Part shown: in pieces, positions 1,886 to 39,894 of the stretch
Position numbering within the stretch: position 1 is the first letter of the stretch
Layout of the letters: every line of letters starts with the position of its first letter
Notes under the pieces: generated by a model
Databases searched by the model: none
What the model saw: only the letters and a program-made list of their open reading frames with translations
Told to the model about the DNA's origin: nothing
NCBI GenBank assembly: GCA_963787125.1
Contig: CAWBBV010000007.1
Span: 320,001-384,000, forward strand
DNA: 64,000 nt
From: an uncultured delta proteobacterium
GTDB lineage: Bacteria > Desulfobacterota > Desulfuromonadia > Geobacterales > DSM-12255
Direction of reading: 5' to 3'
Position numbers and translations under genes: made by a program

Positions 1886-1922
1886 TTTTGTATTCAATTT
1901 TCTGTATTTTTGGGAGGAACCG

Positions 1923-4844
1923 ATGTTTCGCAGACACTCCAGAATAATCGCCGCGGTTGTTTTATCTTTCTTCACCTGGACGTCAGGCGGTGTCTTCAGC
2001 ATTGCCCATGCGGCGCAGGATGCCGTCAAAAAGTCTAATGCCCAGCCTCAGGCGAAGAAGGGCGAAGGGGCGGAGGAGCGTTTTGCCAGGCTGACAGAGG
2101 AGCTGAGTGCCGATCTCTTTGACCCGAAAACCGGTCATGTACACAAGAGGCAGCGGCTGACGGCGCGTAAGGTTGAGCTGGACTCCCTCGACACTGACAT
2201 TCGCCAGCAGTTTGCCGAAACGGAAAAGAAGCTAAAAGACGCCAAGCTGCCCGCTGAGATCCTGGCGCGGCATGCCAAATTCGTCAAACACTATGACGAC
2301 AACCTGGCTGAGTTGAAAGGGAACATGGCGCTGGTAGAGAGCGCCACCGATGCAGCGGAGACCGAAGCTGCAATCGATAAAACCCGCCAGCACCTGGAGC
2401 GGGTCAAAGCCCCCTCCCGCCACAAGAAACTCGATCCCAACAATCTTCCCCACCGGCAGCCGAAGGCGCTGAAGCGGGAGCCTCGGCTGAAGAAAGAAGA
2501 TTTCGACAAGGATCTCAAAAAAGACAAACACGCCTGGAAAAGCGCCAAGAGAATCATGGTCGCCTCGACCGGCTCCGTTGCCGGGCTGCTCCCTGCCGAT
2601 GATCTGGCCGAAACCGTTGAGGTGCAGCTAACTCCGGAGATAAAAGCCAAGGCGCTGGAGCTGGGGAACAGTCCGGTGAAGATCTACGAGTGGGTGCGGA
2701 ACAACGTCAAGTTCGTCCCCACCTGGGGCTCCATCCAGGGGGCGCAGATGACGCTTCTGACCAGGCAGGGAAACTCATTCGACACAAGTTCCCTCCTCAT
2801 CGCCCTCCTGCGGGCAGCCGGGATCAATGCCCGCTATGTTACCGGCACAGTTGAACTTCCCATTGACAATATCATGAACTGGGCCGGAGGTTTCACCGAC
2901 CCAATGGCCGCTCTCGATTTCATGTCCAGTGGCGGCATTCCCACCAAGGGACTTGTTAGCGGCGGCAAGATTGTTGCTGCCCGCTTTGAGCACGTCTCGG
3001 TTGAAGCCTTCATCGACTACATCCCCTCCAGAGGGGCGAAGCACAAGCAGGGACAAGGTGACACCTGGATACCTCTTGATCCGAGCTATAAGCAGTACAC
3101 CTTCACTCAAGGCATCGACATCAAGTCCGCCGTCCCCTTCAACGCTCAGGGGTTCCTCGACCAGATCAAGGCAACCGCCGCCATCAACGAAACCGCAGGC
3201 TACGTCACCGGTATCGACTCCCTCCTTACCCAGCAGACCATGCAGGACTACCAGGCACGGGTCCAGAGCTACATCCAGCAGAACCACGCCAACGCCACCG
3301 TCGGCGATGTCCTCGGCAAGAAAGAGATCGTCAAAAAAGAGTACCGCCATCTCCTCGGCACCCTGCCGTATCGCACCGCAGTCAAGGGAAGTACGTTTAC
3401 CACCATCCCCGACAGCCTGCGGCACAAGCTCTCCTTCAGAGTAGAGAATGAAGCAACCAACACCTTCGTTGACCCCGAAGCACCGGCACCGGTGGATAAC
3501 TCCCTCACCATAAACAAAAGCCTGGCGGAACTGGCAGGCAAGAAGATAACCCTCAGCTACTCACCGGCAACCGTACAGGACGAAGCGGTCATTAACTCCT
3601 ACCTCCCCCGGCCCCATGCAGACGGCACCCCCATACAGCCAAGCGAACTGCCAACCCAGCTCCCGGCGTACCTCATCAATGTCAAACCGGAACTCAGAAT
3701 TGACGGGCAGGTGGTAGCCACCGGAGCGCCGGTAGGCCTGGGCGGCATCAACATCTCCACCATGACCTTCTCCGACCCTGCCTACGGCTCAAGCCAGGTC
3801 ACCAACTACATTGACGCCGGGGTCTATCAGGCAATAGGGCTCAACTTGGGGAGGATCAGCGCTGAGCAGTTAACCAGTCTAAAAGCAAAACTGGAAGCTA
3901 CCAAAGCAAAGCTGCAGAACAACGACTTTGCCACCATGACCAAGGATGATCTGATGGGTGATCTCCTCTACACCACCGCCATGTTTTATCATTCCGGGCT
4001 TGACAAGATGAACAACATCATCGCTCGAACCCTGAATGTCAGTGCTATCACCCTTCCATCGGAAACCATTTTCGCCACCAAGCTCAATGTCATGATGTTT
4101 TTCGGAATACCGAGATATGTCCGGGCAGGCGGCTTGAACATGGATGCGGACTACCTCGTACAGGTGGTAAAATCTAAAGACGGCAATGTTGACACTGCCA
4201 GGCACTACATGCTCAGTAGCGGCATGACGTCATCGGCTCTGGAACATGGCGTGCCGGAACAGCTCTTTTCGACGACAGATACCCCGTTAGAGGGTGTAAG
4301 CACAATAAAAGCGCTCAAAATCGCCTCAGACCAAGGCATTCCAATTTATACAGTAAACCAGAGTAATATTGCCACCACACTGCCGCAACTGCAAATCAGT
4401 CAGCAGATAAAAGACGACATCACTAACGCAGTTAACGCAGGTAAAGTTGTCACCGTTTCTAAAACCAACATTAATTTCAACGGCTGGAATGGTTGCGGGT
4501 ACATTATTGCTAATCCGGATACCGGTGCCGGGGCGTACATGATTAGTGGTGGAACAAGCGGTGGAGATATTATTCTAATCGGTGCATTTCTAAGAAACGA
4601 TATAATTAACGCGCTGGTCAAGTATGCTCCAGAAAAAGAAGCTTTTACTCGGGCAACATCAAAACTCTTAAACGAAGGTGAACTGCTTAATGTTCTAATA
4701 GAAGTAACACAAAAAGAAGCAGCAAATGCTGCTGCACTTAGGGTATTACTTGGCTCACTTCTTGGTGCTACCGTAATTGTTTTGACTCCGTCAACATTAC
4801 AAGATCCGTATTTAGGTGCTGATGGTAATTGGTATTGGCCATAG
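1923..4844 (+). CDS. Secreted transglutaminase-like (TGc) domain protein with variable C-terminal tail, copy 1
   Basis: GGAGG RBS before ATG 1923; Sec signal ending AHA; TGc motifs IYEWVRNN, GNSFDTSSLLIALLRAAGINARY, HVSVE, WIPLDPS. Confidence 0.85.
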   Translation: MFRRHSRIIAAVVLSFFTWTSGGVFSIAHAAQDAVKKSNAQPQAKKGEGAEERFARLTEELSADLFDPKTGHVHKRQRLTARKVELDSLDTDIRQQFAETEKKLKDAKLPAEILARHAKFVKHYDDNLAELKGNMALVESATDAAETEAAIDKTRQHLERVKAPSRHKKLDPNNLPHRQPKALKREPRLKKEDFDKDLKKDKHAWKSAKRIMVASTGSVAGLLPADDLAETVEVQLTPEIKAKALELGNSPVKIYEWVRNNVKFVPTWGSIQGAQMTLLTRQGNSFDTSSLLIALLRAAGINARYVTGTVELPIDNIMNWAGGFTDPMAALDFMSSGGIPTKGLVSGGKIVAARFEHVSVEAFIDYIPSRGAKHKQGQGDTWIPLDPSYKQYTFTQGIDIKSAVPFNAQGFLDQIKATAAINETAGYVTGIDSLLTQQTMQDYQARVQSYIQQNHANATVGDVLGKKEIVKKEYRHLLGTLPYRTAVKGSTFTTIPDSLRHKLSFRVENEATNTFVDPEAPAPVDNSLTINKSLAELAGKKITLSYSPATVQDEAVINSYLPRPHADGTPIQPSELPTQLPAYLINVKPELRIDGQVVATGAPVGLGGINISTMTFSDPAYGSSQVTNYIDAGVYQAIGLNLGRISAEQLTSLKAKLEATKAKLQNNDFATMTKDDLMGDLLYTTAMFYHSGLDKMNNIIARTLNVSAITLPSETIFATKLNVMMFFGIPRYVRAGGLNMDADYLVQVVKSKDGNVDTARHYMLSSGMTSSALEHGVPEQLFSTTDTPLEGVSTIKALKIASDQGIPIYTVNQSNIATTLPQLQISQQIKDDITNAVNAGKVVTVSKTNINFNGWNGCGYIIANPDTGAGAYMISGGTSGGDIILIGAFLRNDIINALVKYAPEKEAFTRATSKLLNEGELLNVLIEVTQKEAANAAALRVLLGSLLGATVIVLTPSTLQDPYLGADGNWYWP

Positions 4845-4908
4845 TTGTAAAGAAGTACCAATTCCACTTAGTTACTACAAAAAATATTCAGGGACAAGGA
4901 GTCGTTAA

Positions 4909-5388
4909 ATGTTTGATATAACCAGATTGTTTGGCAAATATGCAAAACCTCACACTAGAACTAAGTTTGAAATTACTACCATTATATGTATGTCAGTATT
5001 TATGCGTAATTTTGAAGAAATTACAAACAAGCGTTCACTACAAGACATTGCAAAATTAATGCAACAGTTTTATGGGCTTATTGCAAGTGCTACTACTGAT
5101 TTTAATGCCGACATTGACAGGTTTTGCCACAACCAAGTGCTAATATATTTTAAGCATGATATTAATCACGCTGAAGATCATGCTATAAAATGCGGACATA
5201 ATATTATTAGTAACTTTCACAATTATGATGAGTCGTTAGATATCGGCGTCGGAATATGTAAAGGTGAAATTATTTATGGCATATTTGGATCTGAAACAAG
5301 AGCTACGGTAACTGGTTTTGGTCCTGTTGTTAACACTTCAATTGAACTATCTAAAAACAAAAGTGGAGTAAATAGCGTTACCCTATAA
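4909..5388 (+). CDS. AT-rich degenerate class III nucleotide-cyclase-like protein (candidate immunity protein)
   Basis: AAGGAG RBS; IGVGICKGEIIYGIFGS...TGFGPVVN resembles the adenylate/guanylate cyclase core, but catalytic residues are altered. Confidence 0.6.
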   Translation: MFDITRLFGKYAKPHTRTKFEITTIICMSVFMRNFEEITNKRSLQDIAKLMQQFYGLIASATTDFNADIDRFCHNQVLIYFKHDINHAEDHAIKCGHNIISNFHNYDESLDIGVGICKGEIIYGIFGSETRATVTGFGPVVNTSIELSKNKSGVNSVTL

Positions 5389-5478
5389 ACCGGGTCTGTA
5401 CTCTGGGGAAACGTGAAGACGTTGGTAGGTTGTCTCCTTTTTTGAAAAAGAACAAAAGCCGTTAAGTTGGAGGAACCG

Positions 5479-8400
5479 ATGTTTCGCAGACACTCAAGGA
5501 TAATCGCCGCAGTGGTACTGTCTTTCTTCACCTGGACATCAGGCGGCCTGTTCAGCGTCGCTCATGCAGCAACAGCTGCCGTGAAGAAGGCCAAGACCGA
5601 GGCTCCGGCAAAGAAGAGCGATGCGGCCGAGGAGCGGTTTGCGAAGCTGACTGAGGAACTGACAACCGAACTTCTCGACTCGAAAACGAGTCATGAGCAC
5701 AAGAAACAGCGGCTGACGTTCCGCAAGGGTGAGCTGGACACCCTTGACGCCGCCATCCGCAGCGAATTCGCTGCCACCGAGACGAAACTGAAAAACGCCA
5801 AGCTGCCGCCAGAGATCCTGACCAGACATGCCAAGTTCGTCAAACACTACGACGACAACCTTTCCGAGCTGAAGGGGAACATGGCTTTTGTTGAGAGCAC
5901 CCAGGATGCGGCTGAGGCAGAAGCAGCGCTGGAAAAGACCCGCCAGCATTTGGCAAAGGTCAAGGCACCGTCGCGGCACCAGAAACTCGATCCCAACAAC
6001 CTCCCCCATCGGCAGCCGAAGGCGATCAAGCGGGAACCGCGGCTGAAGAAGGAGGATTTCGATAAGGATCTCAAAAAAGACAATCACGCCTGGAAAAGCG
6101 CCAAGAGAATCATGGTCGCCTCGACTGGCTCCGTTGCCGGATTGCTTCCTTCAGATGACCTGGCCGAAACGATAGAAGTCCAGTTAACCCCGGAGATCAG
6201 GGCCAAAGCGCTGGAGCTGGGGAACAGTCCGGTGAAGATCTACGAGTGGGTGCGGAACAACATCGAATTTGTCCCCACCTGGGGCTCCATCCAGGGAGCC
6301 CAGATGACGCTCTTGACCAGGCAGGGGAACTCATTCGACACAAGTTCTCTACTGATAGCGCTGCTGCGGGCCGCAGGGATCAATGCCCGCTATGTTATTG
6401 GTACGGTTGAACTCCCAATTGATAAGATCATGAACTGGGCGGGCGGCTTCACCGACCCCCTGGCTGCCCTAGATTTCATGTCCAGCGGTGGCATACCCAC
6501 CAAGGGTCTGGTTGCCGGGGGCAAGATCGTAGCTGCTCGCTTTGAGCATGTCTCGATCGAAGCCTTCATCAACTACATCCCGTCCCGTGGAGCAAAGCAT
6601 ATCAATGGCAAGGGTGATACCTGGATCAAGCTTGATCCGAGCTTCAAGCAGTACAACTTCACCCAAGGCATCGACATCAAAACCGCCGTCCCCTTCGATG
6701 CACAGGCATTCCTCACCCAGCTGAAATCATCCGCCACCATCAACGAAACCGCTGGATACGTCACCGGCATCAACTCCCTCCTCACCCAACAGACCATGCA
6801 GGACTACCAGACGAGGGTGCAGAGCTACATCCAGCAGAACCATCCCAACGCTACCGTCGGCGATGTGATTGGCAAGAAAGAGATCATCAAAAAGGAATAC
6901 CGCCATCTTCTCGGCACCCTGCCGTACCGCACCGCAGTCAAGGGGGCAACTTTTACCACCATCCCCGACAGCTTGCGGCACAAGCTCTCCTTCAGGGTAG
7001 AGAACGAAGCCGCAAACACCTTCGTTGATCCTGATGCACCGGCAGCGGTGGACAACTCCCTGAGCATCACCAAAAGCCTGGCAGAACTGGCAGGCAAGAA
7101 GATAACCCTCAGCTACTCCCCGGCAACCCCTCAGGACGAAGTTATCATCAACGCCTATCTGCCAAGCCCGCATGCCGACGGCACTCCCATACAGCCAAGC
7201 GAACTCCCCAGCCAGCTACCGGCGTATCTGATCAACGTCAAACCGGAACTCAGGATTGACGGTCAGGTAGTGGCCACCGGAGCGCCGGTAGGCCTTGGCG
7301 GCACCAACATCTCCACCATGACCTTCAGCGACCCGGCTTACGGCTCAAGCCAGATAACCAACTACATTGACGCCGGGGTGTACCAGGCAATCGGGCTCAA
7401 CCTGGGGCGAATCAGCGCCGAGCAGTTAACCGGGCTCAAAGCAAAACTGGAAGCTACCAAAGCAAAACTGCAGAACAACGACTTCGCCGGCATGACCAAA
7501 GATGATCTGATCGGTGATCTCCTCTACACCACCGCCATGGCCTATCATGCCGAACTCGGCACCATGAACTACATTGCCGCAAAAACCATGAACGTCAACG
7601 CCATCACCGTACCGTCAGAAACCATCTTCGCCACCAAGCTCAAAGTAATGTGTCTTTGGGGAATACCGCGCTATATCAGTTCCGGCGGACTCAATATGGA
7701 TGCTGATTATCTGATGCAGGTAGTAAAGGCAAAAGACGGCAACAGCGAGACCGCCAAGCAGTATATGCTCTCCAGCGGCATGACTTCCTCGGCGCTGGAG
7801 CACAATGTGCCGGAGAAGCTCTTCTCCACGCCGGACAGCCCTGCCCAAGGGATCAGCACGGTCAAGGCGCTGAAGATTGCCAATGACCAGGGAATCCCGG
7901 TCTACACGGTCAATCAGGCGAACATTGCGACAGTTATGCCGCAATTGCAGGTGGATCAGCAAGTGAAGGAAGACATCCAGAACGCCGTGAATGCAGGGAA
8001 GATGGTTACTGTCTCCAAGACCAACATCAACTTCAATGGATGGAATGGGTGTGGGTATATCATTACTAATCCGGAAACCGGGGCTGGTGGGTATATGATC
8101 AGTGGGGGGTCGAATGGCGCAGTAATTCAAGCCTTGTGGCTGGCTGGTTACATTATCTTGCATATCCTTGCATTCGCAGGTGTTGCGGCATTGGCTACTT
8201 TAGGTGTTTTATCTGGTGGGTTCGGATCTGCTGTAATATTTCCTGCATTTAGTGCATTTTTAGCTGAAATGATCGCTGTAGTCAGTGCAGGGTATTTAGA
8301 ATTATGCTTATTTGTAGCTAGTGCTCCTATCATTAGGGCATTATATTCCACGGTATCGCTTTGGGCGGATATGAGCCCCCCGCCTTTGCCTTTTCCGACT

Positions 8401-8550
8401 AGTCTCGGAGATTATCAATTTTGGGTGTTCTTCTTTATGGTTCGTATTCTTCACTATTTTGAATTGAAGTGGCTATTGTCTAGAGTCATACTAGAATATA
8501 ATTGGCATATTGTTAGAAGCTATGACATTCAAAATCACATTAGATGTTAA
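5479..8550 (+). CDS. Secreted transglutaminase-like domain protein with hydrophobic variable C-terminal tail, copy 2
   Basis: Same RBS/start context as copy 1 (GGAGGAACCGATGTTTCGCAGACACTC); close paralogue up to TGAGGYMISGG. Confidence 0.85.
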   Translation: MFRRHSRIIAAVVLSFFTWTSGGLFSVAHAATAAVKKAKTEAPAKKSDAAEERFAKLTEELTTELLDSKTSHEHKKQRLTFRKGELDTLDAAIRSEFAATETKLKNAKLPPEILTRHAKFVKHYDDNLSELKGNMAFVESTQDAAEAEAALEKTRQHLAKVKAPSRHQKLDPNNLPHRQPKAIKREPRLKKEDFDKDLKKDNHAWKSAKRIMVASTGSVAGLLPSDDLAETIEVQLTPEIRAKALELGNSPVKIYEWVRNNIEFVPTWGSIQGAQMTLLTRQGNSFDTSSLLIALLRAAGINARYVIGTVELPIDKIMNWAGGFTDPLAALDFMSSGGIPTKGLVAGGKIVAARFEHVSIEAFINYIPSRGAKHINGKGDTWIKLDPSFKQYNFTQGIDIKTAVPFDAQAFLTQLKSSATINETAGYVTGINSLLTQQTMQDYQTRVQSYIQQNHPNATVGDVIGKKEIIKKEYRHLLGTLPYRTAVKGATFTTIPDSLRHKLSFRVENEAANTFVDPDAPAAVDNSLSITKSLAELAGKKITLSYSPATPQDEVIINAYLPSPHADGTPIQPSELPSQLPAYLINVKPELRIDGQVVATGAPVGLGGTNISTMTFSDPAYGSSQITNYIDAGVYQAIGLNLGRISAEQLTGLKAKLEATKAKLQNNDFAGMTKDDLIGDLLYTTAMAYHAELGTMNYIAAKTMNVNAITVPSETIFATKLKVMCLWGIPRYISSGGLNMDADYLMQVVKAKDGNSETAKQYMLSSGMTSSALEHNVPEKLFSTPDSPAQGISTVKALKIANDQGIPVYTVNQANIATVMPQLQVDQQVKEDIQNAVNAGKMVTVSKTNINFNGWNGCGYIITNPETGAGGYMISGGSNGAVIQALWLAGYIILHILAFAGVAALATLGVLSGGFGSAVIFPAFSAFLAEMIAVVSAGYLELCLFVASAPIIRALYSTVSLWADMSPPPLPFPTSLGDYQFWVFFFMVRILHYFELKWLLSRVILEYNWHIVRSYDIQNHIRC

Positions 8551-8559
8551 GAGTAACAT

Positions 8560-9465
8560 ATGAAAACAAATCTCAAGTTAATTATTAACAAATACAATAA
8601 CTTCTTAATCGAAATTACAGGTTTTATTTCGGCAAGTCTAATTTTTTCATCTGGTATTGGCCGATATAGAGTATGTATTGCATATGCTGTATACAGTGTA
8701 ATTAAGGCAATTGGTACAATAAAATTTATTGGTAAAACCCCAGACATATTTTTATTGCCGGCTATCGCGATAGCAGTATATTTCGATTTAACAAAAGGTC
8801 CAGTACTCCCACTTTTTACCAATAACTATTTGTTGTTCGCGCTAGCAGTGTTGATCATAGTTGATTTGTTAACTAGGAAGCTAATGAAACGGATGATATC
8901 TACTATCAGCAATGGCGAATTATTTGTAGCGTGCCCTTCATGTAGTTTTGACAACAAAGAGTTAGTGGAAACCTGTAATAATTGCAATTATGACACAAGT
9001 AAAGGGTTTGGTAGATTTTATACCAATATATCATCACGTTTTATAGGCAATGAAATACCCTCAAAGCTATTTCGATTATTGAATATTGGTGAAAATGAAG
9101 AAGTTGTTTATCATAAAAAGCTTACTAGCAATCTGGTTTTTTTAAAAAACAATGAAAGAGAACTAAGAAAGCACCTGATAATAACAACAGAAAATGTGAT
9201 ATTCATTGATTATGAAGGTATTAGCTTTGGCATACCAAAAAGCTATCGTGCAAAAGATATTATTTCTTTAGATAAAATTGAATTTATAAAGTGTGAAATG
9301 AAAAACATTTTTATGGCAAATAGCCCGTTTCTCGAAATTGTAACCATTAACAAAGATTGTTATGGGATTACATTTTCATATTTTGGAAATTACAAGGAAG
9401 AAATGGGTGATATCGTCAAATTAATCACAAATTCGAATCCACAGGTTAAATCGACTCTCATCTGA
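8560..9465 (+). CDS. AT-rich membrane protein with zinc ribbon (candidate immunity protein)
   Basis: About four N-terminal hydrophobic segments, CPSC-x10-CNNC ribbon and a beta-rich C-terminal domain; starts 9 nt after the copy-2 stop. Confidence 0.65.
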   Translation: MKTNLKLIINKYNNFLIEITGFISASLIFSSGIGRYRVCIAYAVYSVIKAIGTIKFIGKTPDIFLLPAIAIAVYFDLTKGPVLPLFTNNYLLFALAVLIIVDLLTRKLMKRMISTISNGELFVACPSCSFDNKELVETCNNCNYDTSKGFGRFYTNISSRFIGNEIPSKLFRLLNIGENEEVVYHKKLTSNLVFLKNNERELRKHLIITTENVIFIDYEGISFGIPKSYRAKDIISLDKIEFIKCEMKNIFMANSPFLEIVTINKDCYGITFSYFGNYKEEMGDIVKLITNSNPQVKSTLI

Positions 9466-9551
9466 TTGATTGTTCAGAGATAGTAATCACCTGACAGCCG
9501 ACACGATAGCAGAAGTCAGACCATCATTTATTGAGCTCTTTTTATTGCAGC

Positions 9552-10697
9552 TAGTGTTTAATTGCATAAGTTAGCTATTGTATTTCTAAGCTGAGCGCCT
9601 CTGACTTCTCGTTTGCGCCAAACAAAAGGAGAAGCGGTTTCGTTGTAGCTGGCAATAAATGCTTCGATTGAATTCGTCAACTGTTCCGTGCTTGAGAAAC
9701 TGGCTCCAGATAAGGTTTTACGGCTAAGTATCCCAAACCATATTTCTACCTGATTGAGCCAACTGGCCGAGGTCGGCGTAAAGTGGAAGTGGACATTGGG
9801 ATGTAAGGCCAGCCAATCTTCATTTTTCTTGTGTGTACAGTAGTTGTCGAGAATTACATGAATATCTTCACCATCTGGAACCGTTGACACTATATCATCG
9901 AGAAACGCCTGAAAGTCCGGTCGTTTTTTAGTTACAGTTGTTTTCGACTGGATAGTTCCGGCGGCAACATCTAGTGCTGCAAATAGATTGATGACGCCAT
10001 GCCGCTTATAGGTGCTCTTCAGGCCGCGAACAATTTTACCGCTGCTTGTCTGCACATAACCGGTTGACCGCTCCAAGGCCTGTATAGATGGTTTCTCGTC
10101 AATACAGAGTACCAATGCTTTCTGTGGCGGTGCCAGGTATAAGCCGATTATGTCGGCTGACTTTACCGAGAATTCAGGATCAGTGCTGACACACCACGAA
10201 CGGTGTCGCCGCAACTGAATGCCGTTTTTACGCAGTATGCGCCAGACAACATCATCTGAGACCGCCAATGCTTTAGCCAGTGCACCGCCATCCCATGCCG
10301 CCAGACCTGCTGGCGGAGACTCTTCCAGCTTGGCGAGTATGCGCTGCCTTAACTCTAATGCTGGATATTTAGCTGGCTTGCCGGAACGGGGTTTGTCGTA
10401 TAAACCCGAAAGACCATGAGCCGCAAAGCGTTTACGCCAGATGCCCACAGTCAGCGCTTGCGTATCAAGCTCGGCTGCGACCTCATCATTGCGCTTACCG
10501 GACAGACAGTAAAGTATGATTTTAACTCGCTCCACAATGCGTATTTCTTCGGTCCGGCTTCTGCTTATGCGCTCTAGCTCTTGCACGACCTTGGGCTCAC
10601 AAGTTAGCGCTATTGCAACCCTGGGCATATGACACCTCCATCTCTAGTGGGATGGAGACAGTATAATACTTATATTAACTATTGCAACTAAACACTA
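9552..10697 (-). mobile_element. IS630-family insertion sequence
   Basis: Inverted ends CTAGTGTTTAATTGCA (9551) and TGCAACTAAACACTAG (ending 10698), with the TA/CTAG target typical of IS630. Confidence 0.92.
9558..10628 (-). CDS. IS630-family transposase
   Basis: N-terminal HTH (DKPRSGKP); DDE motifs CIDEK, ILDNY, SWLNQVEIWF. Confidence 0.95.
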   Translation of the reverse strand: MPRVAIALTCEPKVVQELERISRSRTEEIRIVERVKIILYCLSGKRNDEVAAELDTQALTVGIWRKRFAAHGLSGLYDKPRSGKPAKYPALELRQRILAKLEESPPAGLAAWDGGALAKALAVSDDVVWRILRKNGIQLRRHRSWCVSTDPEFSVKSADIIGLYLAPPQKALVLCIDEKPSIQALERSTGYVQTSSGKIVRGLKSTYKRHGVINLFAALDVAAGTIQSKTTVTKKRPDFQAFLDDIVSTVPDGEDIHVILDNYCTHKKNEDWLALHPNVHFHFTPTSASWLNQVEIWFGILSRKTLSGASFSSTEQLTNSIEAFIASYNETASPFVWRKREVRGAQLRNTIANLCN

Positions 10698-10706
10698 GGA
10701 GGAATT

Positions 10707-13334
10707 ATGCATAGCCGACAGCTTCTCATTCTAATAGTGATGTTTTGTTCATTGATATTCGCCATGGCGGCCCACGCCCAGCTCCCCCAGATATCCAGCG
10801 GACTCAGTTACCTTACCGCAGCCCAAAACCCTGACGGCACCTGGGAGACCAGTACTTCACCGGTCGAGACCACCGTTGTCACGGTCTCGGCCTTGGAAAC
10901 GCTCAAACTGCTGAACCAGACCGCCGGAACTGCCTATACCAGCGGCGCTGCCTGGCTACAAGGGCAAACGCCGCTTTCCGTTGATACCATTGCTGATCAG
11001 ATCCGCGTTCTTAGTCTTACCGGCAATAGCATCAATGCTCTTCTTCCTCTTATCGATCCAGCCAAAGGAGCCTGGGGCGGAGATGAAGGGTTTTTAGTCA
11101 ACATCCTCGACAGCTCCCTCGCCCTCCAGGCCCTCCACGCCGCCAACTACCCCGACCTCACCGTCATCAATAACGCCCTGGCCTACCTCACAGGAAGCCA
11201 GAACAGCGACGGTAGCTGGAGTTTCTCAACCGGCAGCGACAGCAACATTTACCTGACCGCCATCGTCTCCGCCACCCTCCAGCAGTTCCCCCAGATGACC
11301 AGCATCGCCGCCGCGGTAAACAAGGCCACGACGTATCTACTCGCCCATCAGAACAGCGACGGCGGGTTTGGCCCTTCGATAGGCTCAGGGCAATCACTTT
11401 CTACAGTCTACGAAACTGCCCTGGCCTACACCGCCCTGGCAGCTGTCGCCACCAACGAAGCGGTATTAACGAACGCTGCCAACTACCTCACTTCTACCCA
11501 AGCAACCAACGGCTCCTGGAACAACGACCCTTACTCTACGGCCCTGGCGCTGAAAGCCCTTTACCTCTCGGAAAACCGCCCATCACCACCGCCGCCGCCA
11601 CCGGCAGGGGGCAAGTTCACCGGCACGGTGGTTGACTCCATCACTCTGCAAAAGGTGGCAGGTGTAACCGTTGCCCTGGTGAGCAACAACCTGATCAATA
11701 CGGTCAGCGACAGTGGTGGGAACTTCACCCTGGCTGATGTCCCTCCCGGCGCTCAGAACGTCAACTTTTCCCTTGCCAGTTTTGCTTCGACAACCTCCGC
11801 AGCTACCGCCATTGCCGACGTTACCACGAATCTCGGCAATATTCCGATGACCTCCGCCTACACCACCGGCGCTATCAGCGGCAAGATCCTTGACCAGACA
11901 GGCAAGCCGCTGGACAATGTCGCCATCGCAGTCAGCGGCTCCTGGAGCGGCAGCGCCGTTACCGGGGCAGACGGCGCCTTTGCCTTTGCTTTTGTCACCC
12001 CCGGCGACGTCACCATCACCGCTGCTAAAACCGGTTACCAGAGCTTCAGCGGAGCGGGACGGGTCTACGCCCGCACCACCCTCTCTATCTCCCCCCGGCT
12101 GAACTCTGCCCAGTCCCAGTTAACCACCGGCAGCATTATCGGCAGAGTTATCAGCGACTTCTGGGGCTACCCGATAGACCATCTGTCGGAAGATCAAGGG
12201 GTGAGGGTCACGATTTCCGGGGGCGCATTCGTCGAGCCAGACCCGAATAACGGCGGCAAATTCGCCATCAATGGTCTTGCTCCCAACACATATCAGGTGA
12301 CAATCGGCATGAGCGGCTTTGTCAGCCAGACCTTCCGCCTGATCGTCGTCCCCGGCGTTACCTCCGATTTGGGGACGATCCGCCTGGTCGAGTCAGTAGC
12401 CACCATGACCCTTGTGGGTAAAGTCACGGATACGGCTACCGGACTGCCGATCCCCAGCGCGGAGATTGTCATCCCTGCCACCGGCCAGACCGCCCGCAGT
12501 GATTTTGCCGGGACGTATGCCATTGCTGATATCAAAACGTTCCAATTAGACCTTAAGGTTTCGGCTGTCGGCTATGTGGCGAAAACCGTTGACCTCTACC
12601 AGGTCGGCATCCATGGCTCAATATGGACCCAGACCGTGGATGTATCCCTGACAGCACAGACTACTATGGGTGATATTTCGGGCAGGGTCATTGCTGGCGA
12701 AACAGGCCAACCGTTGGCCGTAGCTACCATTACCCTGGCGGCTGCGGCAGACACAACAGTGACTACCGGTGCGGACGGCATCTTTACCATGAAAACTCTG
12801 CAGATGGGGGTGCAGCAGCTGCTGATAGCCAGCGACGGCTATGCCCCCCGGACAGTAGAGATGGTCATCTTCCCCGGCATGGTCACTACAAGCGGCGACA
12901 TTGCCCTGGCGGCGGTACCCGTCAATGGCGTTATCCGGGGGGTGGTCCGCAACGCTGAGACCGGCGCTACCCTGGCCGGAGTCCAGGTAACGGTCGACGG
13001 CAGCACGAGTTTGCAGACCGTGACGACAACCGACGGCAGCTATCTCTTCGACCCTGTTGCTCCCGGCCCCGTAACCGTCAACATGACGAAGGTCGGCTAT
13101 TACCCGGCCCGGATCAGCGCCACCCTGGCCGAAGGGGGAATGCTGGTCTTCAGTCCAGCGCTGGCCGCCGCCATGCCGGTGACAGTCTCCACGGCCCTGC
13201 AGACCGATAAGCCGGTCTATGCCAAGGGTGATACGGTCGGCTTCACCACAACCCTGATCAACCGCGAGTCCCGTGACCTGACGGCCACATTACGATCGCG
13301 CCGGACGGTTCAGTTGCCCACAAGGCTGCAGTAG
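10707..13334 (+). CDS. N-terminal part of giant secreted protein: prenyltransferase/squalene-cyclase-type QW repeats plus carboxypeptidase-regulatory-like beta-sandwich repeats
   Basis: Signal peptide ending AHA; QNPDGTW, QNSDGSW, QNSDGGF, QATNGSW; poly-Pro linker; repeated G.I.G.V.D...G.P..G motifs; reading frame shifts near 13294. Confidence 0.75.
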   Translation: MHSRQLLILIVMFCSLIFAMAAHAQLPQISSGLSYLTAAQNPDGTWETSTSPVETTVVTVSALETLKLLNQTAGTAYTSGAAWLQGQTPLSVDTIADQIRVLSLTGNSINALLPLIDPAKGAWGGDEGFLVNILDSSLALQALHAANYPDLTVINNALAYLTGSQNSDGSWSFSTGSDSNIYLTAIVSATLQQFPQMTSIAAAVNKATTYLLAHQNSDGGFGPSIGSGQSLSTVYETALAYTALAAVATNEAVLTNAANYLTSTQATNGSWNNDPYSTALALKALYLSENRPSPPPPPPAGGKFTGTVVDSITLQKVAGVTVALVSNNLINTVSDSGGNFTLADVPPGAQNVNFSLASFASTTSAATAIADVTTNLGNIPMTSAYTTGAISGKILDQTGKPLDNVAIAVSGSWSGSAVTGADGAFAFAFVTPGDVTITAAKTGYQSFSGAGRVYARTTLSISPRLNSAQSQLTTGSIIGRVISDFWGYPIDHLSEDQGVRVTISGGAFVEPDPNNGGKFAINGLAPNTYQVTIGMSGFVSQTFRLIVVPGVTSDLGTIRLVESVATMTLVGKVTDTATGLPIPSAEIVIPATGQTARSDFAGTYAIADIKTFQLDLKVSAVGYVAKTVDLYQVGIHGSIWTQTVDVSLTAQTTMGDISGRVIAGETGQPLAVATITLAAAADTTVTTGADGIFTMKTLQMGVQQLLIASDGYAPRTVEMVIFPGMVTTSGDIALAAVPVNGVIRGVVRNAETGATLAGVQVTVDGSTSLQTVTTTDGSYLFDPVAPGPVTVNMTKVGYYPARISATLAEGGMLVFSPALAAAMPVTVSTALQTDKPVYAKGDTVGFTTTLINRESRDLTATLRSRRTVQLPTRLQ

Positions 13335-16300
13335 TCACTACCCTTGCCTCCGACGGAGTGCGCTCACTGGAAAGCTCATACCCGCTCCCAGCCAGCCTGC
13401 AAGGGGGGATTTACACGGTCTCCGCGGAACTGTTCGACGTGGTCGGGGCCTGGATCGGCGCCGCCACGGGGAGTTTCGGCGTGGCGGTCAGCCGGATTTC
13501 CGTGACCCCCACTCTGCCGCAGATGTTCTCGACCGGCAATAACTCCCTCCTTTTCAATCTCAACAATGTTGGCGATCTGCCGGCAGCCTCCGGCAGATTC
13601 ACCCTTGCCCTCAAGGATGAGTCCGGGCTTGTAGTGGCCGCTATGGAGCAGCCCTTTACGCTTGCCCCGGGTACGGGAAAAACCGTGACCGTCAATCTTG
13701 CCCTGCCGACACTACCCTTCGGCGCCTACAGCCTGGTCTACAGTCAGAGCGATGAAACCCGCGACGGTGTGCCGGTAACTATTCCGCTCGTTAACGCTGT
13801 TACCATAACCGCTCTCTTCGACAACAATTCCCACCGGGTACGGGACACGGCAACCCTGAACGTAACGGTGGCAAATACCGGCCGGTTCGCCCTGGAGAGC
13901 GGCCTGCCCATCGCCGTCACTCTCCCCGCTGCCGGCTACACCGAGACCAGAAGTCTGGTTACTGTCCCGGTTAGCGGCAATACGCAGGTATTCAGCTTTA
14001 CAATCCCCGCGTCCCTCGGTTCCGGCGAGCACATTGCCAGCATCACCGCCGCCCTGCCGGGAGGTCCGGCCATCACCGCCAGCGCCAAACTGGTGATTTT
14101 CCCGGCGGCTCTCACCCTTGAGCCGTTGCCGACAAACGCCGCGGCAGGCGGCGCCGTCAGCGTACATATTGTCAATAGCGGCGGCATTGATACACAGGCC
14201 GCTTGCCGCTTGAGTCTCTACGATATGACGTCAAAGCTGATAGCGGAAAAGGTTGCCATGGAAACGGCCCTGGCCGGCGCCTCACTGCCCATAGCGCTGT
14301 CGATTCCGGCCGGCGCTGTTGACGGCAGCTACAGCCTGGTGGTGAATTACAGGAACAGCTCCACCGGGGCAGAAGAAACAGTATCCGGCCAGTTGCTCAT
14401 TACAGGTGTCAAAGGAAGTCTGCTGGTTACCACAGGAAAATCGAATTATCTGCCGACGGAGCCGATTGCCGGGCAGAGTAGCATCACAACCTCCGGCTTT
14501 CCTTTGCAGAACGGCAATCTCCACCTGCAGGTAACCAACGCCAGCGGGAGTCGGCAGCAAAGAATCTGGACAAGCCAGTTCGACTTTCAGCAGGGGGTGA
14601 GAAGCGGGCTCGATGCCTACAGCGTCCCTGGAGCAGTGTCGCTACTGTCGCTATCTGATAATTTCGATGATGGCATCCTTAATACGGACAGGTGGACGAA
14701 AATAACCGGTAACGCCGGCATGCCCCCGGCAGAGGAATCAGGATTCCTGAAAACAGAACTGCCGGGCGCTGCTACTGCCGGCAACGTGTCAGCTTTGCGC
14801 GCTGCCTATCTCTTTTCCGGAGATTTTGATATTTCTGTCGACTACTCCATCACGAAATGGAGTTCTCAATCGCATATGGGCATCATTACGTACATTGATG
14901 GCAACGAACTCCGCTGGGGTGTGTTTGCAAATAAGTCGTTTGAAACGATGTGGGCATATTACGATTGGCGTGCAGGGTTTACTGCGCCAGATAACGGCAA
15001 GTTGCGATTGAAGCGCAGCGGAAATATGTACTACTGCTATTTTTGGAATGAATCTGCCTGGACTTTGTTCACCGTATACAGGCTGCCTGCGCCGGCGGTA
15101 ACAGTTCAGTTTTGGGCAAACTCTGACACTCAAGGAAATCCCATGGAAATCCATTGGGACAACTTCACTTCAGATACGAATTTCATCTCAGCCGGAACAA
15201 TGAATTTGAAATACGATAGCGGACAATCGGATTATTGGGACAAGTTTGCGTTCGATGGCGATATCCCTACCGGCACCGGTATCAAGTTCCGGACACGCAC
15301 TGCCGAAACTGAAGCCGGTCTGGCCAGTGGTATGTGGAGCGATTACATCACCACTAGCGGTTCGCCGATCACCAACCCGAAAGGGCGCTGGATCGAAGTC
15401 GAGACTACCATGTCCACAACGGATACAACAAAAACGCCGGTTTTGCGTGATATTAGCGTAACCCAGGGGCATAACCCGGGCGAAATCTTCTGGCAGACCG
15501 ATATCCCGGTCAATCTCGATGCCGGTGCGACCACAGCGCCTGCCAGCAGCATCGACACGCTCGCTCAGCCTGGAAAATACTACCTGCAAGGCACTCTGAC
15601 AGCAGATACCGGCCAGACAACCGCCACGGCCGAGTATCCTTTTTATGTCGTTCAGGGGAATATGCTTCTAACGCTCAGCCCCGACAAGAAACTGTACAAA
15701 CCGGGCGAGACAGTTACCATAAACGGTACGATATCAAACATGGCGACAATCGAGGCGGCCAATCTTGTCTTTTCGGTAAAGGCCAAAGCCGGGACTGGTG
15801 CTGAACAAGCACTGATTGCCGACACCTTCAGCATTCCTGTCGGCAGCAGCCGTACGTTCAAAACAACTACAACCGCCGGAACTGATGGGGTTGTCGCCCT
15901 GATGGCAACGATTGCCCAGAATGGCACAACCTTGGCCGCGGTTGCCGATCAGTACGAAATCTCCAGCCCGAAAGTGGCTGCAACCCTGAGCGGGCCTGAC
16001 AACGCCGGTACTGAGCCGATCACCTTGACGCTCACCCTCGCCAACAGCGGCAAGACCGATGCCTTGATTACCGTCACCAAATCGTTCAACTCCCCGCCAG
16101 AGACGCTAACCATCTCTGCCGGGCAGACAAGGTTACTCCAATACCCCCAACAACTCACCGCCGATTCGAACTATGCCTTCACCCTGTCCGGCGATCTGGC
16201 GCTGCAACTGACGAAGACGGTTGTTTATCTCGCCCCCAAGCAGGCAGCCAAGGTGAGCGTAAAAGCAGTTACTGACAAAATCTCCTATAACGCCATCGAG

Positions 16301-18283
16301 AAAGTTGCCATTACCACCACAATAAACTGCCTTAACGCCGGAACAACAGGTGACACTCTTAAGGCAACAGTGATGATAGTCAACAGCGGTGGAGAAGAGC
16401 TCTTCACCGACCAATTCATACTGTCAGCTCCTGATACAGGGAGAATCTACACTGACAGCAGATACTGGAACAGTGCCGCCTATCCGCCGGGCGTCTATGT
16501 CGCCAGAGTGACGGTGGAAAGTGGCGGGGCGGTACTGGCTACCAGCGAAGCGACGTTTACAGTTCTCTCTTCATCCGTGAGCGGAGCAGGAGTTGCAGGG
16601 GCTGTCTCTCCCGCTATGAACGCTGTTTACCTCGGCATTGACGAATCTCTTGCCATTACTGTGAAGAGCAGCGGCAATGAGGATCTGGCTGCGGCTCTCC
16701 TAGCTGTAACAGTGATCAATCCCGATACTCAGGCAATCATGCAGTCCTACAGCAAGATGATTACCCTTCCCCGCCAAGGGACCTTTACCGACACCGTTAT
16801 TGTGCCGACAGCAGCCTTTGCGGCGCGGGATTATCTGGCCATCCTGCAGATAACACTCCCCGGCATGGCTCAGGCCAAGACCATTGCCGGTACTCCTTTT
16901 AGCGTGAAGATTGCGCCGCCGCCCACGCTGCTTATCTCCACCCTGTCAGACGGCGCCGTGACCAATAACCAGACATTGAACATTACCGGTTCCGCGACAG
17001 GGGTAGTCGCCATAAGGTCGCTCACGATCAACACAACCGACGTGCCGCTCAATAGTGACGGCAGTTTCAGTCATGCGCTGCTGCTGCAAACGGGAGACTA
17101 TGTCGTGTCAACCATAGTCACTGACATCCTGGGGCACACTGCCACCGACAGCCGCACCATCACCCTCGACCAGCTGGCTCCAACCCTGACCATAGATTCC
17201 CCGGCGGACAACAGCACAACTGCCGTTTCTCCCATTGAAGTCAAGGGGAGAGTGGACGAGACCTCCACGGTAACTGTCACGGTAAAGGAGAGCGGCCAAA
17301 CTCTCATCATGAACGGCAAGGACTTTTCGGCCACGGTGTTGCCATTGCCAAGATGGAATACCATCGAAATAACCGCAACAGACTTGGCAGGCAATACTAG
17401 CAGCCAGAAGCGGAGCGTGCTGTTCGACGACCAGAAGCCGTCTCTGGCAATAACCGCACCGGATCAGGATATCCGCACCAATAAAAGCAGCCTGACGCTC
17501 AGCGGCAAAGCTTCCGATCCTTACACCGCCGTTGGCGTTACCGTTGCCATGGACGGCAGTGTGCTGGCTCCGGCGGTGATAGACGGTATTTTCTCCCAGA
17601 TTGTCAACTTTACAGACGAAAAACTCTACCCGATAACCGTTACCGCCAGCAATGAGGTGGGAACGCAGACCACTGTGCAGAGGAATGTCATCTTTGACAA
17701 AACCCCGCCGAACCTGACCATTGACCCGGTTGTTACGCCGACGAACGGCTCAGCCCAGACTATAAGCGGCACCAGGGAAAACGGGATAGCAGTAACCGTT
17801 AGCTGCGCTACCGCCACAGTCGGCGCAGTGGAGTATCCGGCCGGCACTACCTGGCGTGCCGCCATCAGCGGCCTTGCGCAGGGGGAGAACCGTTTGCTGG
17901 CTGAGGCATACGACCTGGCAGGCAACAAGACAACAGCCGTCGCCACGATTCTTTATGTGCCGAAAACGCCGGATGTGTTCATCAGCGCTTCCCGGCAGAC
18001 TCTCTGGCCGCCGAACAAAAAGCTGGTGCCGGTAGTCATTAGCGGAAATGTGGCGACCTTTGGCTCTGACATAAAAGATGTGACCATCTCCGTTGCCGAT
18101 GAATACGGGAAATACAATCTGCAGGGGCTCAAATTCGGCGATACGGTGCTGCTGGAGGCGTGGCGGGAAGGGAGCGACATGGACGGCAGGGTCTACACCA
18201 TTACTGCGGTGGTGACGGATCAGGCTGGAAACAGGGCAACGAAGTCAGCTACGGTTATTGTGCCGCACGATATGGGGAAATAG
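13295..18283 (+). CDS. C-terminal part of the same giant protein: MG/Ig-like repeats, lectin-like insert, bacterial Ig repeats and LWPPN...VPHD end domain
   Basis: Frame is open from at least 13295 (IAPDGSVAHK...) into the ORF-track 13358..18283 ORF; TDK..Y..GE motifs; D..PP.L.I and D.AGN Ig repeats. Confidence 0.7.
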   Translation: MAPDGSVAHKAAVVTTLASDGVRSLESSYPLPASLQGGIYTVSAELFDVVGAWIGAATGSFGVAVSRISVTPTLPQMFSTGNNSLLFNLNNVGDLPAASGRFTLALKDESGLVVAAMEQPFTLAPGTGKTVTVNLALPTLPFGAYSLVYSQSDETRDGVPVTIPLVNAVTITALFDNNSHRVRDTATLNVTVANTGRFALESGLPIAVTLPAAGYTETRSLVTVPVSGNTQVFSFTIPASLGSGEHIASITAALPGGPAITASAKLVIFPAALTLEPLPTNAAAGGAVSVHIVNSGGIDTQAACRLSLYDMTSKLIAEKVAMETALAGASLPIALSIPAGAVDGSYSLVVNYRNSSTGAEETVSGQLLITGVKGSLLVTTGKSNYLPTEPIAGQSSITTSGFPLQNGNLHLQVTNASGSRQQRIWTSQFDFQQGVRSGLDAYSVPGAVSLLSLSDNFDDGILNTDRWTKITGNAGMPPAEESGFLKTELPGAATAGNVSALRAAYLFSGDFDISVDYSITKWSSQSHMGIITYIDGNELRWGVFANKSFETMWAYYDWRAGFTAPDNGKLRLKRSGNMYYCYFWNESAWTLFTVYRLPAPAVTVQFWANSDTQGNPMEIHWDNFTSDTNFISAGTMNLKYDSGQSDYWDKFAFDGDIPTGTGIKFRTRTAETEAGLASGMWSDYITTSGSPITNPKGRWIEVETTMSTTDTTKTPVLRDISVTQGHNPGEIFWQTDIPVNLDAGATTAPASSIDTLAQPGKYYLQGTLTADTGQTTATAEYPFYVVQGNMLLTLSPDKKLYKPGETVTINGTISNMATIEAANLVFSVKAKAGTGAEQALIADTFSIPVGSSRTFKTTTTAGTDGVVALMATIAQNGTTLAAVADQYEISSPKVAATLSGPDNAGTEPITLTLTLANSGKTDALITVTKSFNSPPETLTISAGQTRLLQYPQQLTADSNYAFTLSGDLALQLTKTVVYLAPKQAAKVSVKAVTDKISYNAIEKVAITTTINCLNAGTTGDTLKATVMIVNSGGEELFTDQFILSAPDTGRIYTDSRYWNSAAYPPGVYVARVTVESGGAVLATSEATFTVLSSSVSGAGVAGAVSPAMNAVYLGIDESLAITVKSSGNEDLAAALLAVTVINPDTQAIMQSYSKMITLPRQGTFTDTVIVPTAAFAARDYLAILQITLPGMAQAKTIAGTPFSVKIAPPPTLLISTLSDGAVTNNQTLNITGSATGVVAIRSLTINTTDVPLNSDGSFSHALLLQTGDYVVSTIVTDILGHTATDSRTITLDQLAPTLTIDSPADNSTTAVSPIEVKGRVDETSTVTVTVKESGQTLIMNGKDFSATVLPLPRWNTIEITATDLAGNTSSQKRSVLFDDQKPSLAITAPDQDIRTNKSSLTLSGKASDPYTAVGVTVAMDGSVLAPAVIDGIFSQIVNFTDEKLYPITVTASNEVGTQTTVQRNVIFDKTPPNLTIDPVVTPTNGSAQTISGTRENGIAVTVSCATATVGAVEYPAGTTWRAAISGLAQGENRLLAEAYDLAGNKTTAVATILYVPKTPDVFISASRQTLWPPNKKLVPVVISGNVATFGSDIKDVTISVADEYGKYNLQGLKFGDTVLLEAWREGSDMDGRVYTITAVVTDQAGNRATKSATVIVPHDMGK

Positions 18284-18305
18284 AGTAACTCCGGAAGATC
18301 AGGGC

Positions 18306-18338
18306 AAAGGGCCGGGCAGAATATCCGGCCCTTTTTTT
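18306..18338 (+). terminator. Intrinsic terminator ending the accessory operon
   Basis: AAAGGGCCGG...CCGGCCCTTT followed by a T-tract. Confidence 0.8.
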
Positions 18339-18447
18339 GCCCCGGAATTGGTTCCTGGCTGTAGCAAGTTCTGTTTCCCTTTCAGGCAAAATAATGTAAG
18401 TTATCCGATCATTATCACGTTGTTGAAAAACTACTCGGGGCTGAATT

Positions 18448-19830: not shown

Positions 19831-20033
19831 CTGCTGAACGAGAAGTGTGGATTGAGGTCGAAGGGTGAGAAAAGCTTTTTTTTTTCTTACTTCGCTTAAA
19901 CTCAACCGGTTTTCCTTTGACCTGTTGCTCCCTTTTTTGTTTTAAGTTTGGCTGAATTTTGTTATAAGCAGTCGGTATGCCTGACCCTCTCGGCCAGAAT
20001 AAGTGAACCCCTATAAAAAGGAAGCTTTCGGAG

Positions 20034-21101: not shown

Positions 21102-21135
21102 AATTTTATCCGTAATAAAAAAGGAGAAAAGAACG

Positions 21136-21600
21136 ATGGATATTAAAGACCTGAAAGTGCTGGTAAAGATGATCACCGAAACTGACATCACTGAGTTCGA
21201 AATGGAGAGCGGCGAAGAGAGGATATTCCTTAAGCGTGGCAGTGAGCCTCAAGTGGTTCAGTATCAGACTGCTCCTGCTCCTGTCTATGCACAGGCTCCC
21301 CATGGGTTTGCAGCCCCTGCTACAGTTGCATCAGCTCCGGCCGTTGCTGAAGATGAGAAGGGCGAGCGGATTCCATCGCCGATTGTCGGGACATTCTACC
21401 GGTCACCGGCTCCTGATGCGGCTCATTTTGTAGAAGTGGGACAGGTTGTGGAAAAAGGTCAGGTGCTTTGCATAGTCGAGGCGATGAAGCTGATGAACGA
21501 GATTGAAGCCGAATTTCGCTGCAAGATAATCAAGGTCTGCCGTGAGAATGCCGAACCGGTAGAGTACAATGATACGTTGTTCATCGTCGAAAAACTCTAG
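21136..21600 (+). CDS. accB: Acetyl-CoA carboxylase biotin carboxyl carrier protein
   Basis: EAMKLMNEIE biotinylation motif; AAGGAG RBS. Confidence 0.96.
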   Translation: MDIKDLKVLVKMITETDITEFEMESGEERIFLKRGSEPQVVQYQTAPAPVYAQAPHGFAAPATVASAPAVAEDEKGERIPSPIVGTFYRSPAPDAAHFVEVGQVVEKGQVLCIVEAMKLMNEIEAEFRCKIIKVCRENAEPVEYNDTLFIVEKL

Positions 21601-21624
21601 CAGAGAGCTTACAGGAGATACTTC

Positions 21625-22965: not shown

Positions 22966-22968
22966 AGT

Positions 22969-23355: not shown

Positions 23356-23379
23356 CAACTATTTTTAATTGTTACCTGA

Positions 23380-23408
23380 AGGGCGAGATTTTCTCGCCTT
23401 TTTTTTTG
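23380..23408 (+). terminator. Intrinsic terminator after gcvH
   Basis: GGCGAGA..TCTCGCC stem followed by a T-tract. Confidence 0.65.
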
Positions 23409-23421
23409 AGGAGATGCGAAA

Positions 23422-27076: not shown

Positions 27077-27087
27077 GTCATATCCAA

Positions 27088-27120: not shown

Positions 27121-27139
27121 AAGATATATATGCGGTTTT

Positions 27140-39869: not shown

Positions 39870-39894
39870 TAGCGGCAGTTTAGTTGTTTGCAGT

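Follow-up and report, generated by a model that had tools for sequence, protein, structure and literature searches.

An RHS-less relative of inactive-transglutaminase Rhs toxins as carrier of a candidate polymorphic toxin-immunity system

In the text of Zhang et al. (2012, PMC3482391), an "inactive transglutaminase" is described as one of the N-terminal modules of Sec-dependent polymorphic toxins. These proteins start with a signal peptide or membrane helix, continue with a transglutaminase domain that has lost catalytic residues and then carry RHS repeats, and the authors suggested that the transglutaminase domain anchors the toxin via peptide binding. Here, we analyzed a stretch of 64,000 nucleotides (the window) on contig CAWBBV010000007.1 of an uncultured delta proteobacterium, in which two tandem genes (A and B) encode proteins with a transglutaminase-like fold. 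Both end in a variable C-terminal tail, and each is followed by a different gene. The region probably represents two cassettes of a polymorphic toxin-immunity system, the carrier of which is an RHS-less relative of the inactive-transglutaminase Rhs toxins.

The likeness to this class, as it is described in the text of Zhang et al. (2012), comprises the signal peptide, the transglutaminase fold minus a catalytic residue, the variable C-terminus and the dependence on Sec. It extends to direct homology, because the whole constant region of genes A and B aligns to the N-terminus of RHS-bearing proteins. In two loci (L092 and L093), the carrier (42-45% identity, residues 1-860/880, Cys-less) continues within one open reading frame (ORF) into PKD, PASTA and DUF6531 domains and 12-20 RHS repeats. 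Further carrier matches lie in open frames of 2255-3492 aa, with RHS repeats in the same frame in all five genomes tested. Genes A and B themselves gave no RHS_repeat match at E<=0.1 in Pfam; as their homologous long forms do carry the repeats, we consider them relatives of the class, not members. Unlike the toxins described there, they also lack PKD, PASTA and DUF6531, with the tail joined directly to the junction, and without RHS repeats there would be no shell encasing the toxin. They further differ in that most tails consist of membrane helices and that a conserved giant gene lies next door. In the terms in which the text of that paper defines polymorphic toxins, we found variable tails, a tail-specific downstream gene and orphan cassettes.

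The original prediction, made from the sequence alone, did not assign the carrier to any characterized class. This has to be revised insofar as the inactive transglutaminase is known as an N-terminal module of Rhs toxins, whereas it stands for the RHS-less form, on which a limited full-text literature search found no paper; the figures or supplements of Zhang et al. (2012) may list such proteins. Both the inactive-transglutaminase module and polymorphic toxins as such have been described before, and the RHS-less form was not found in print, nor were its conserved junction, its unrecognized pre-tail domain, the dominance of membrane-helix tails or the giant neighbor.

Two other groups of systems invite comparison. 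MafB/MafI of Neisseria, according to the text of Jamet et al. (2015, PMC4287609), likewise combine a signal peptide, a conserved domain devoid of repeats and a short end motif (VSGDF in MafB, YMISGG here) with a variable C-terminal toxin (a candidate one here), a downstream immunity gene and extra C-terminal (CT) cassettes. An associated conserved gene without known secretion role exists in both cases, mafA in Neisseria and the giant gene here, and neither comes with an established route across the outer membrane. Unlike MafB as described there, the carrier studied here has ~880 aa and a transglutaminase fold, bears mostly membrane tails and occurs in several phyla instead of one genus; DUF1020 (PF06255) of MafB is absent from genes A and B (Pfam, E<=0.1). 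With CdiA/CdiB and the Rhs/PAAR effectors of type VI secretion systems (T6SS), the locus shares the plan of a constant carrier, a pre-toxin junction, a variable CT, a cognate (here putative) immunity gene and orphan modules. Unlike these, it contains a Sec signal and, by Pfam, no two-partner secretion (TPS) domain, filamentous hemagglutinin (FHA) repeats, VENN, PAAR or VgrG. The earlier statement that the window holds no T6SS, CdiB or Rhs parts was borne out for its first 31.5 kb, the part covered by the Pfam scan. The pre-toxin domain PT-TG (PF14449) gave no match in genes A and B at E<=0.1, and a link to it through the TG in ...PETGAGAY... was dismissed as a resemblance in letters only.

Genes A and B, with coordinates read from their ATG starts, encode close paralogues, identical in 743 of 886 residues (84%) in a gap-free BLASTP alignment. 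A DNA alignment showed the ribosome-binding site and start, TGGAGGAACCGATG, to be common to both, and upstream of it the identity disappears ~14 nt 5' of the ATG. The protein alignment ends at ...YMISGG(T/S)xG, with nothing aligned beyond this point. In 60-nt windows, DNA identity between the two genes amounts to 61-96% along their length and drops to 23-46% from position ~4546. The tails that follow the two glycines, 96 aa in A and 146 aa in B, do not resemble each other. GC content changes at the same place, from 0.552 and 0.556 in the constant parts of A and B (genome: 0.508) to 0.398 and 0.408 in the tails, and then to 0.327 (4909-5388) and 0.310 (8560-9465) in the small genes. Tandem paralogues with matching start context, an abrupt loss of similarity after the junction motif, unrelated tails and a switch from GC-rich to AT-rich DNA had all been predicted, and all were recovered.

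Table 1 Features of the locus and its surroundings (positions in the window).
Feature	Coordinates	Strand	Details and basis
Ribosome-binding context GGAGGAA	1906..1919	+	common to gene B at 5465-5478; DNA alignment
Gene A	1920..4844	+	974-aa carrier with tail A; P0005 = 973 aa plus stop
Signal-peptide-like N-terminus (MFRRHSRIIAAVVLSFFTWTSGGVFSIAHA)	1920..2009	+	sequence; cleavage inferred by eye
Four-helix bundle, residues 48-163	2061..2408	+	AlphaFold2 (AF2) model; VIA Z 8-10, not specific
Conserved linker without predicted secondary structure, motif LDPNNLPHR	2412..2519	+	alignment, AF2 model
Transglutaminase-like core	2628..3083	+	Pfam PF01841 (Transglut_core), E 1e-14
Pre-tail domain, ~395 aa	3372..4553	+	model of residues 485-880, confident
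Junction motif TGAGAYMISGGTSG, gene A	4521..4562	+	end of paralogue homology
Tail A, 96 aa	4554..4841	+	one predicted membrane helix plus amphipathic helices; no family match
Small gene after tail A (P0003), 159 aa	4909..5388	+	candidate partner/immunity gene
Gene B	5479..8550	+	paralogue of gene A, 1023 aa; carries variable tail B
Junction motif TGAGGYMISGGSNG, gene B	8077..8118	+	sequence
Tail B, 146 aa	8110..8547	+	three predicted membrane helices; relatives on other carriers
Gene after tail B (P0004), 301 aa	8560..9465	+	N-terminal membrane helices, zinc ribbon, C-terminal domain
Insertion sequence	9544..10705	-	DDE_3 transposase 9558-10628, 30-nt terminal inverted repeats
Giant neighbor gene	10707..18283	+	two frames here, 10707-13334 and 13358-18283

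By a genome search combined with a script, we located three more carrier copies, arranged in tandem on another contig of the same genome (G000:C16:31000-45200); one of them is interrupted by an insertion sequence (39129-40270). The constant parts of the five copies are 77-86% identical and lead through the same junction into five unrelated tails of 96-146 aa, each with a different AT-rich ORF behind it, so that the predicted arrangement of a distinct AT-rich gene after every tail holds for all five. Across the copies, the GC content of tails (0.355-0.41) and partners (0.24-0.33) contrasts with that of the constant parts (0.54-0.56). In another C16 copy, the tail is immediately followed by a 461-aa ORF and, at some distance, by a 146-aa membrane ORF. 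A 127-aa remnant (G000:C4:125727-126110, residues ~696-790) is found among mobile-element genes and has neither junction nor tail.

The family extends well beyond this genome. A word-indexed protein search yielded 516 homologues at E<=0.001. Among the 120 matches listed, most cover the query to ~81-83%, that is, up to the junction, and the junction motif was present in 106 of 122 homologues examined. Sources include Geotalea, Citrifermentans, Desulfuromonas and metagenome-assembled genomes (MAGs) of Nitrospirae and Gammaproteobacteria. Cultivable bacteria with a member of the family are Geotalea daltonii FRC-32, Geobacter argillaceus, Geothermobacter hydrogeniphilus and Agitococcus lubricus. 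Within the same order, 37 of 239 genomes (32 of 171 high-quality ones) have a carrier match, often in multiple copies. Scanning one genome per species gave 74 loci in Desulfuromonadota, Nitrospirota, Thermodesulfobacteriota/Syntrophia and a few proteobacterial MAGs. For the comparisons below we used 96 locus sources, some duplicates and truncated contigs included, with 90 distinct ORFs reaching the junction (64 full length, 16 5'-cut and 10 short).

Clustering the homologues past YMISGG, a check that had been proposed with the original prediction, resulted in 44 tail classes under loose (90 ORFs) and 54 under strict conditions (86 rows), accompanied by specific neighbors and including some folds of known toxin type. 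Tails of relatives matched NLPC_P60 (38.5 and 24.0 bits, cut-off 23), CHAP (25.3 and 22.9 bits, cut-off 26) and Phospholip_A2_3 (27.8 and 28.3 bits, just below the cut-off of 29.4), and weakly also SLT (17 bits) and Tox-ART-HYD1 (18 and 15 bits). A Pfam search of 24 homologues picked for odd tails returned PF01841 only. Nearly all the activities suggested by the matches would attack the cell envelope. An envelope-directed repertoire of amidase, lipase and membrane-disrupting activities resembles that of T6SS effectors.

In the genome itself, tail A has a single predicted membrane helix, and the other four tails, all strongly hydrophobic, have 2-4 each. Relatives of tail B sit on carriers of the same family, such as P0014 (58%), P0117, P0050 and P0008; a search for tail B in longer proteins found just one carrier of this family. 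Tail A had three matches among 1.84 billion representatives, of which only an 81-aa fragment looks real. We considered a sorting signal of the GlyGly-CTERM type (GG followed by a helix) and dropped it as a full explanation, since the tails measure 90-240 aa and some are soluble enzymes. A caspase-like reading of tail class T25 was also abandoned, as the HG...C pattern had been recognized by eye only and Pfam found nothing. The neighbor of these HG...C tails (L055:6878-8014, and in L056) matches a serpin weakly and below threshold (18.3 bits, cut-off 27); an immunity protein of the protease-inhibitor type would suit such tails.

Tail classes and downstream genes vary together. The first downstream ORFs fell into 60 classes under loose and 63 under strict clustering (86 rows having both tail and neighbor). 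With strict clustering and within-locus pairs left out, 23 locus pairs had the same tail and the same neighbor class, compared to 0.56 on average and 5 at most when the neighbor labels were shuffled 1000 times; the rows are kin and not independent, and L039 and L058 represent one gene twice (a partial copy), which raises the count by a few pairs. The other pairs comprised 37 with the same tail and different neighbors, 9 with different tails and the same neighbor and 3570 in which both differed. Under loose clustering, T5 was paired with D7 in 3/3 cases, T19 with D24 in 3/3 and T25 with D32 or D34 in 6/6. Tail and neighbor types correspond as well. Tails without a membrane helix precede, in 17 of 20 cases, a protein whose only hydrophobic segment is N-terminal and signal-peptide-like; tails with at least two helices precede a protein with at least two helices in 40 of 53. 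In class T17, helices are followed by a soluble domain, and 5 of the 6 neighbors have no hydrophobic segments. Next to the soluble tails with enzyme matches, the neighbors are beta-propellers with signal peptides. The compartment predicted for the partner thus appears to agree with the tail type, with multi-pass partners for membrane tails and signal-peptide partners for soluble ones.

In L063 and L066, tails resembling tail B are followed by members of the P0004 family (E 1.5e-15 and 2.6e-16), as is the case in L107 under looser clustering only. Members of this family are no more than 24-28% identical, yet retain a membrane segment with GRYR and a zinc ribbon, CPxC...CxNC, that is invariant; in the Protein Atlas, P0004 gave only leads below 0.8, to zinc-ribbon and bPH families. 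The product of the 4909 gene is of a different kind. It has no membrane or signal segment, matches Guanylate_cyc below the cut-off (E 0.028, Pfam) and bears resemblance to an isolated class III nucleotidyl-cyclase homology domain (Atlas 0.95, 29 of 30 hits in the same family set). A single relative, 69% identical, turned up in 5.8 billion clusters. The proposed role of the small genes in immunity is therefore favored by the covariation for the family and questionable for the 4909 gene, whose product is cyclase-like and soluble.

These data also bear on a reading in which the tails are functionless decayed or shuffled 3' ends produced by insertion-sequence activity and the small genes are unrelated AT-rich cargo. 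Insertion sequences do occur at 9544-10705, inside one C16 copy and after another copy, and tail A and the 4909 gene have hardly any relatives. Nevertheless, every tail keeps an open frame of similar length before its stop codon, other carriers bear tails of the same classes as tail B and the three C16 tails at 40-67% identity, the partner family of tail B has kept its zinc ribbon despite its divergence, and the covariation far exceeds the shuffles. We disfavor this explanation as scarcely credible.

Six true orphan cassettes were identified in relatives (the second one in L072, and those in L080, L100, L106, L117 and L130). Each consists of the last 75-220 constant residues, a new tail and its own small gene, and lies behind a complete gene and its neighbor. 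The other four of the ten short ORFs were rejected as orphans, those of L066, L120 and the first one in L072 being frameshifted gene halves and that of L105 lying at a contig start. One sediment metagenome, containing 0.17 of the sampled words on short low-depth contigs, showed no joints. A FastTree phylogeny of the last 400 constant residues (75 rows) required 42 changes of tail class; the minimum for the 38 classes is 37, and shuffled labels gave 60-65. Because the observed number is near the minimum, tail classes mostly follow carrier kinship.

This kinship would be expected if the protein were a periplasmic or surface-assembly factor retained by its producer. The tail would then be no toxin and only a membrane anchor, paired with a co-evolving membrane partner in a complex that serves the giant protein in folding, anchoring or cross-linking. 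A Sec signal combined with C-terminal membrane helices predicts an inner-membrane anchor, the giant gene accompanies the carrier in 58 of 96 locus sources and stands beside both arrays of the genome, and the tails of genes A and B match no toxin family. However, an anchor requires no diversification, yet five paralogues of 77-86% identity bear unrelated low-GC tails. In relatives, soluble NlpC/P60, phospholipase-A2-like and further enzyme tails are paired with signal-peptide partners, tail-plus-partner cassettes exist as orphans, and the carrier also occurs joined to RHS repeats, which are a toxin hallmark. We judge this alternative improbable, since it does not account for enzyme-type tails, for orphan cassettes or for relatives with RHS fusions. 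The same observations, with tail diversity and covariation, support the earlier proposal that the transglutaminase-fold protein is a toxin carrier.

From this organization, we infer that the tails are toxic, that the partners protect against them, that the tail is released at the junction and that it reaches other cells. The carrier would be exported by the Sec pathway, and the variable tail would be its toxic part. The five hydrophobic helical tails of the genome would, by prediction, enter the cytoplasmic membrane and damage it; the toxic parts of relatives would include cell-wall hydrolases, a phospholipase A2-like domain and further types. The cognate protector would be encoded by the immediately following gene and sited in the compartment in which the tail acts. 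Low-GC cassettes of tail plus partner may be gained by recombination in the conserved last ~100 residues, and delivery may involve the conserved giant repeat protein encoded next door.

The same polymorphism and cognate pairing would also be expected of a self/non-self recognition or addiction module, in which the cassettes act as kin identity markers or locus stabilizers and not as weapons against competitors. The presence of several cassettes per genome, the patchy distribution (37/239 genomes of the order) and the lack of a dedicated export machine among our findings are in line with this. Cell-wall hydrolase and phospholipase-like tails, in contrast, represent activities of the effector type, and such a module would be a mechanistic sub-case of toxin-immunity, inseparable from it by sequence. 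As a separate explanation it seems to us very improbable.

Several observations weigh against a toxin-immunity system. The genome's own tails have no Pfam toxin-family match, and tblastn found no orphan cassette in the host genome. The tail A/4909 pair is nearly unique and is the weakest part of the case; the 4909 gene is a doubtful immunity gene and an atypical partner for a membrane-helix tail. Besides the kinship among the rows of the covariation test, 37 pairs of like tails have differing downstream clusters, which may partly reflect mechanical ORF choice or divergence. Judging from the tree, tail swapping between distant carriers would be rare or would take adjoining constant sequence along. 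No TssC (PF05943), the T6SS sheath gene, was found in this genome, which is 99.96% complete, and no route across the outer membrane was identified. Furthermore, C-terminal membrane helices in a protein with a Sec signal should act as stop-transfer segments in the producer's inner membrane, so that the carrier may be held there and never leave the cell.

With regard to export, the missing TssC and the signal-peptide-like N-terminus do not fit a T6SS effector. A genome search with PF03865 (TpsB) found nothing, control genomes giving no match either. The genome encodes three secretins, which the search did not assign to a system. The N-terminal hydrophobic segment of genes A and B reads AHA before and A after the cleavage site placed by eye, and their products are probably Sec-exported. 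F17, W19 and G23 are nearly invariant in the family, and the hydrophobic core FFTWTSGG is conserved beyond what plain Sec signals show, which may indicate a dedicated sorting step. Twin-arginine export was rejected, as the paralogues carry RK instead of RR.

Behind the signal peptide, the carrier consists of the bundle with its linker, the Cys-less transglutaminase fold and the pre-tail domain of ~400 aa, ending in the junction ...GCGYII.NPETGAGAYMISGG.xG. The linker (residues 165-200, LDPNNLPHR...PR...E.F) contains D171, P172 and L175, which are invariant in 80/80 homologues. It belongs to the most conserved stretches of the family and resembles a docking motif for some partner. PF01841 was the sole Pfam match of genes A and B at E<=0.1. 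In the profile alignment, the catalytic Cys of PDB 3isr (GVCRDF versus gnafDt) faces Ala or Ser, with Ser in gene A. Across 80 homologues this column holds Ala in 64, Asp in 8, Ser in 6, Val and Thr in 1 each and Cys in none, the His column being His in 78/80 and the Asp column Asp in 80/80. In 12/80 homologues, a Cys occurs at residue 283, two residues before the canonical position (C-N-A-F-D versus G-N-A-F-D). As the Cys column never contains Cys, the transglutaminase fold is probably a binding module rather than an enzyme.

The AF2 model of the whole carrier (pLDDT 73.7) shows the bundle, the unstructured linker, the transglutaminase core and a further region. The core is matched by 3isr (VIA Z 11.3), and Foldseek and VIA searches with this model returned only the transglutaminase core and unspecific helical bundles. 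Folded alone from 74 sequences, residues 485-880 gave a confident model (pLDDT 92.7, pTM 0.89). For this pre-tail domain (396 aa), Foldseek returned nothing at E<=0.001 and the highest VIA Z was 5.9; we regard it as an unrecognized fold, not as a proven new one.

A conserved giant gene downstream of the cassettes was overlooked in the original prediction. The encoded protein has a signal peptide, an alpha/alpha toroid similar to prenyltransferases and terpenoid cyclases, a Pro-rich linker and many CarboxypepD_reg/Ig-like repeats. Homologues are present in the 58 locus sources across phyla, many of the remaining sources being truncated, and lie downstream of the carriers in the locus rows displayed. 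The genome contains two giant genes, one beside each carrier array; the C16 copy is located at 17696-31039 on the minus strand. An alpha-2-macroglobulin-like reading was dropped, because the toroid contains no CGEQ-type thioester motif. The frame changes near 13285-13360, whereas the relatives and the C16 paralogue (4447 aa) are single ORFs; this could be due to a frameshift mutation or a sequencing error.

A Sec-exported candidate toxin in a diderm host poses an export puzzle to which the giant neighbor gene is the only clue. A tentative and on balance unlikely extension of the toxin-carrier reading would be that the carriers and the giant repeat protein form a new two-gene device for contact-dependent delivery in diderm anaerobes without T6SS or contact-dependent inhibition (CDI) systems. 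The giant toroid-plus-Ig-repeat protein would then be a surface fiber, on which the Cys-less transglutaminase fold or the LDPNNLPHR linker might dock. The pre-tail domain would present the tail, to be released at the Gly-Gly junction, and the helical tails would insert themselves into the neighbor's membrane or bring cargo across, as might apply to the class of helices plus an ADP-ribosyltransferase (ART)-like domain.

If the toxin-immunity reading is correct, the family would constitute a widespread interbacterial weapon of metal-reducing Desulfuromonadales, Nitrospirota and other anaerobes of sediment and groundwater that is absent from current toxin catalogues, and it would provide dozens of candidate toxin-immunity pairs. 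The Rhs shell would be dispensable while the N-terminal module stays. The tail repertoire is made up mainly of small modules predicted to insert into membranes, a type with few known mechanisms, and the putative pre-toxin domain combines a confidently modeled fold with the lack of a clear match among solved structures.

As for the surroundings, the locus is flanked upstream by a Cache/HAMP histidine kinase gene (36-1583), and the giant gene is followed downstream by a sigma-54 response regulator gene (18448-19830). Most relatives do not preserve the linkage of these two genes to the locus. The insertion sequence in the window sits exactly between the partner gene of tail B and the start of the giant gene.

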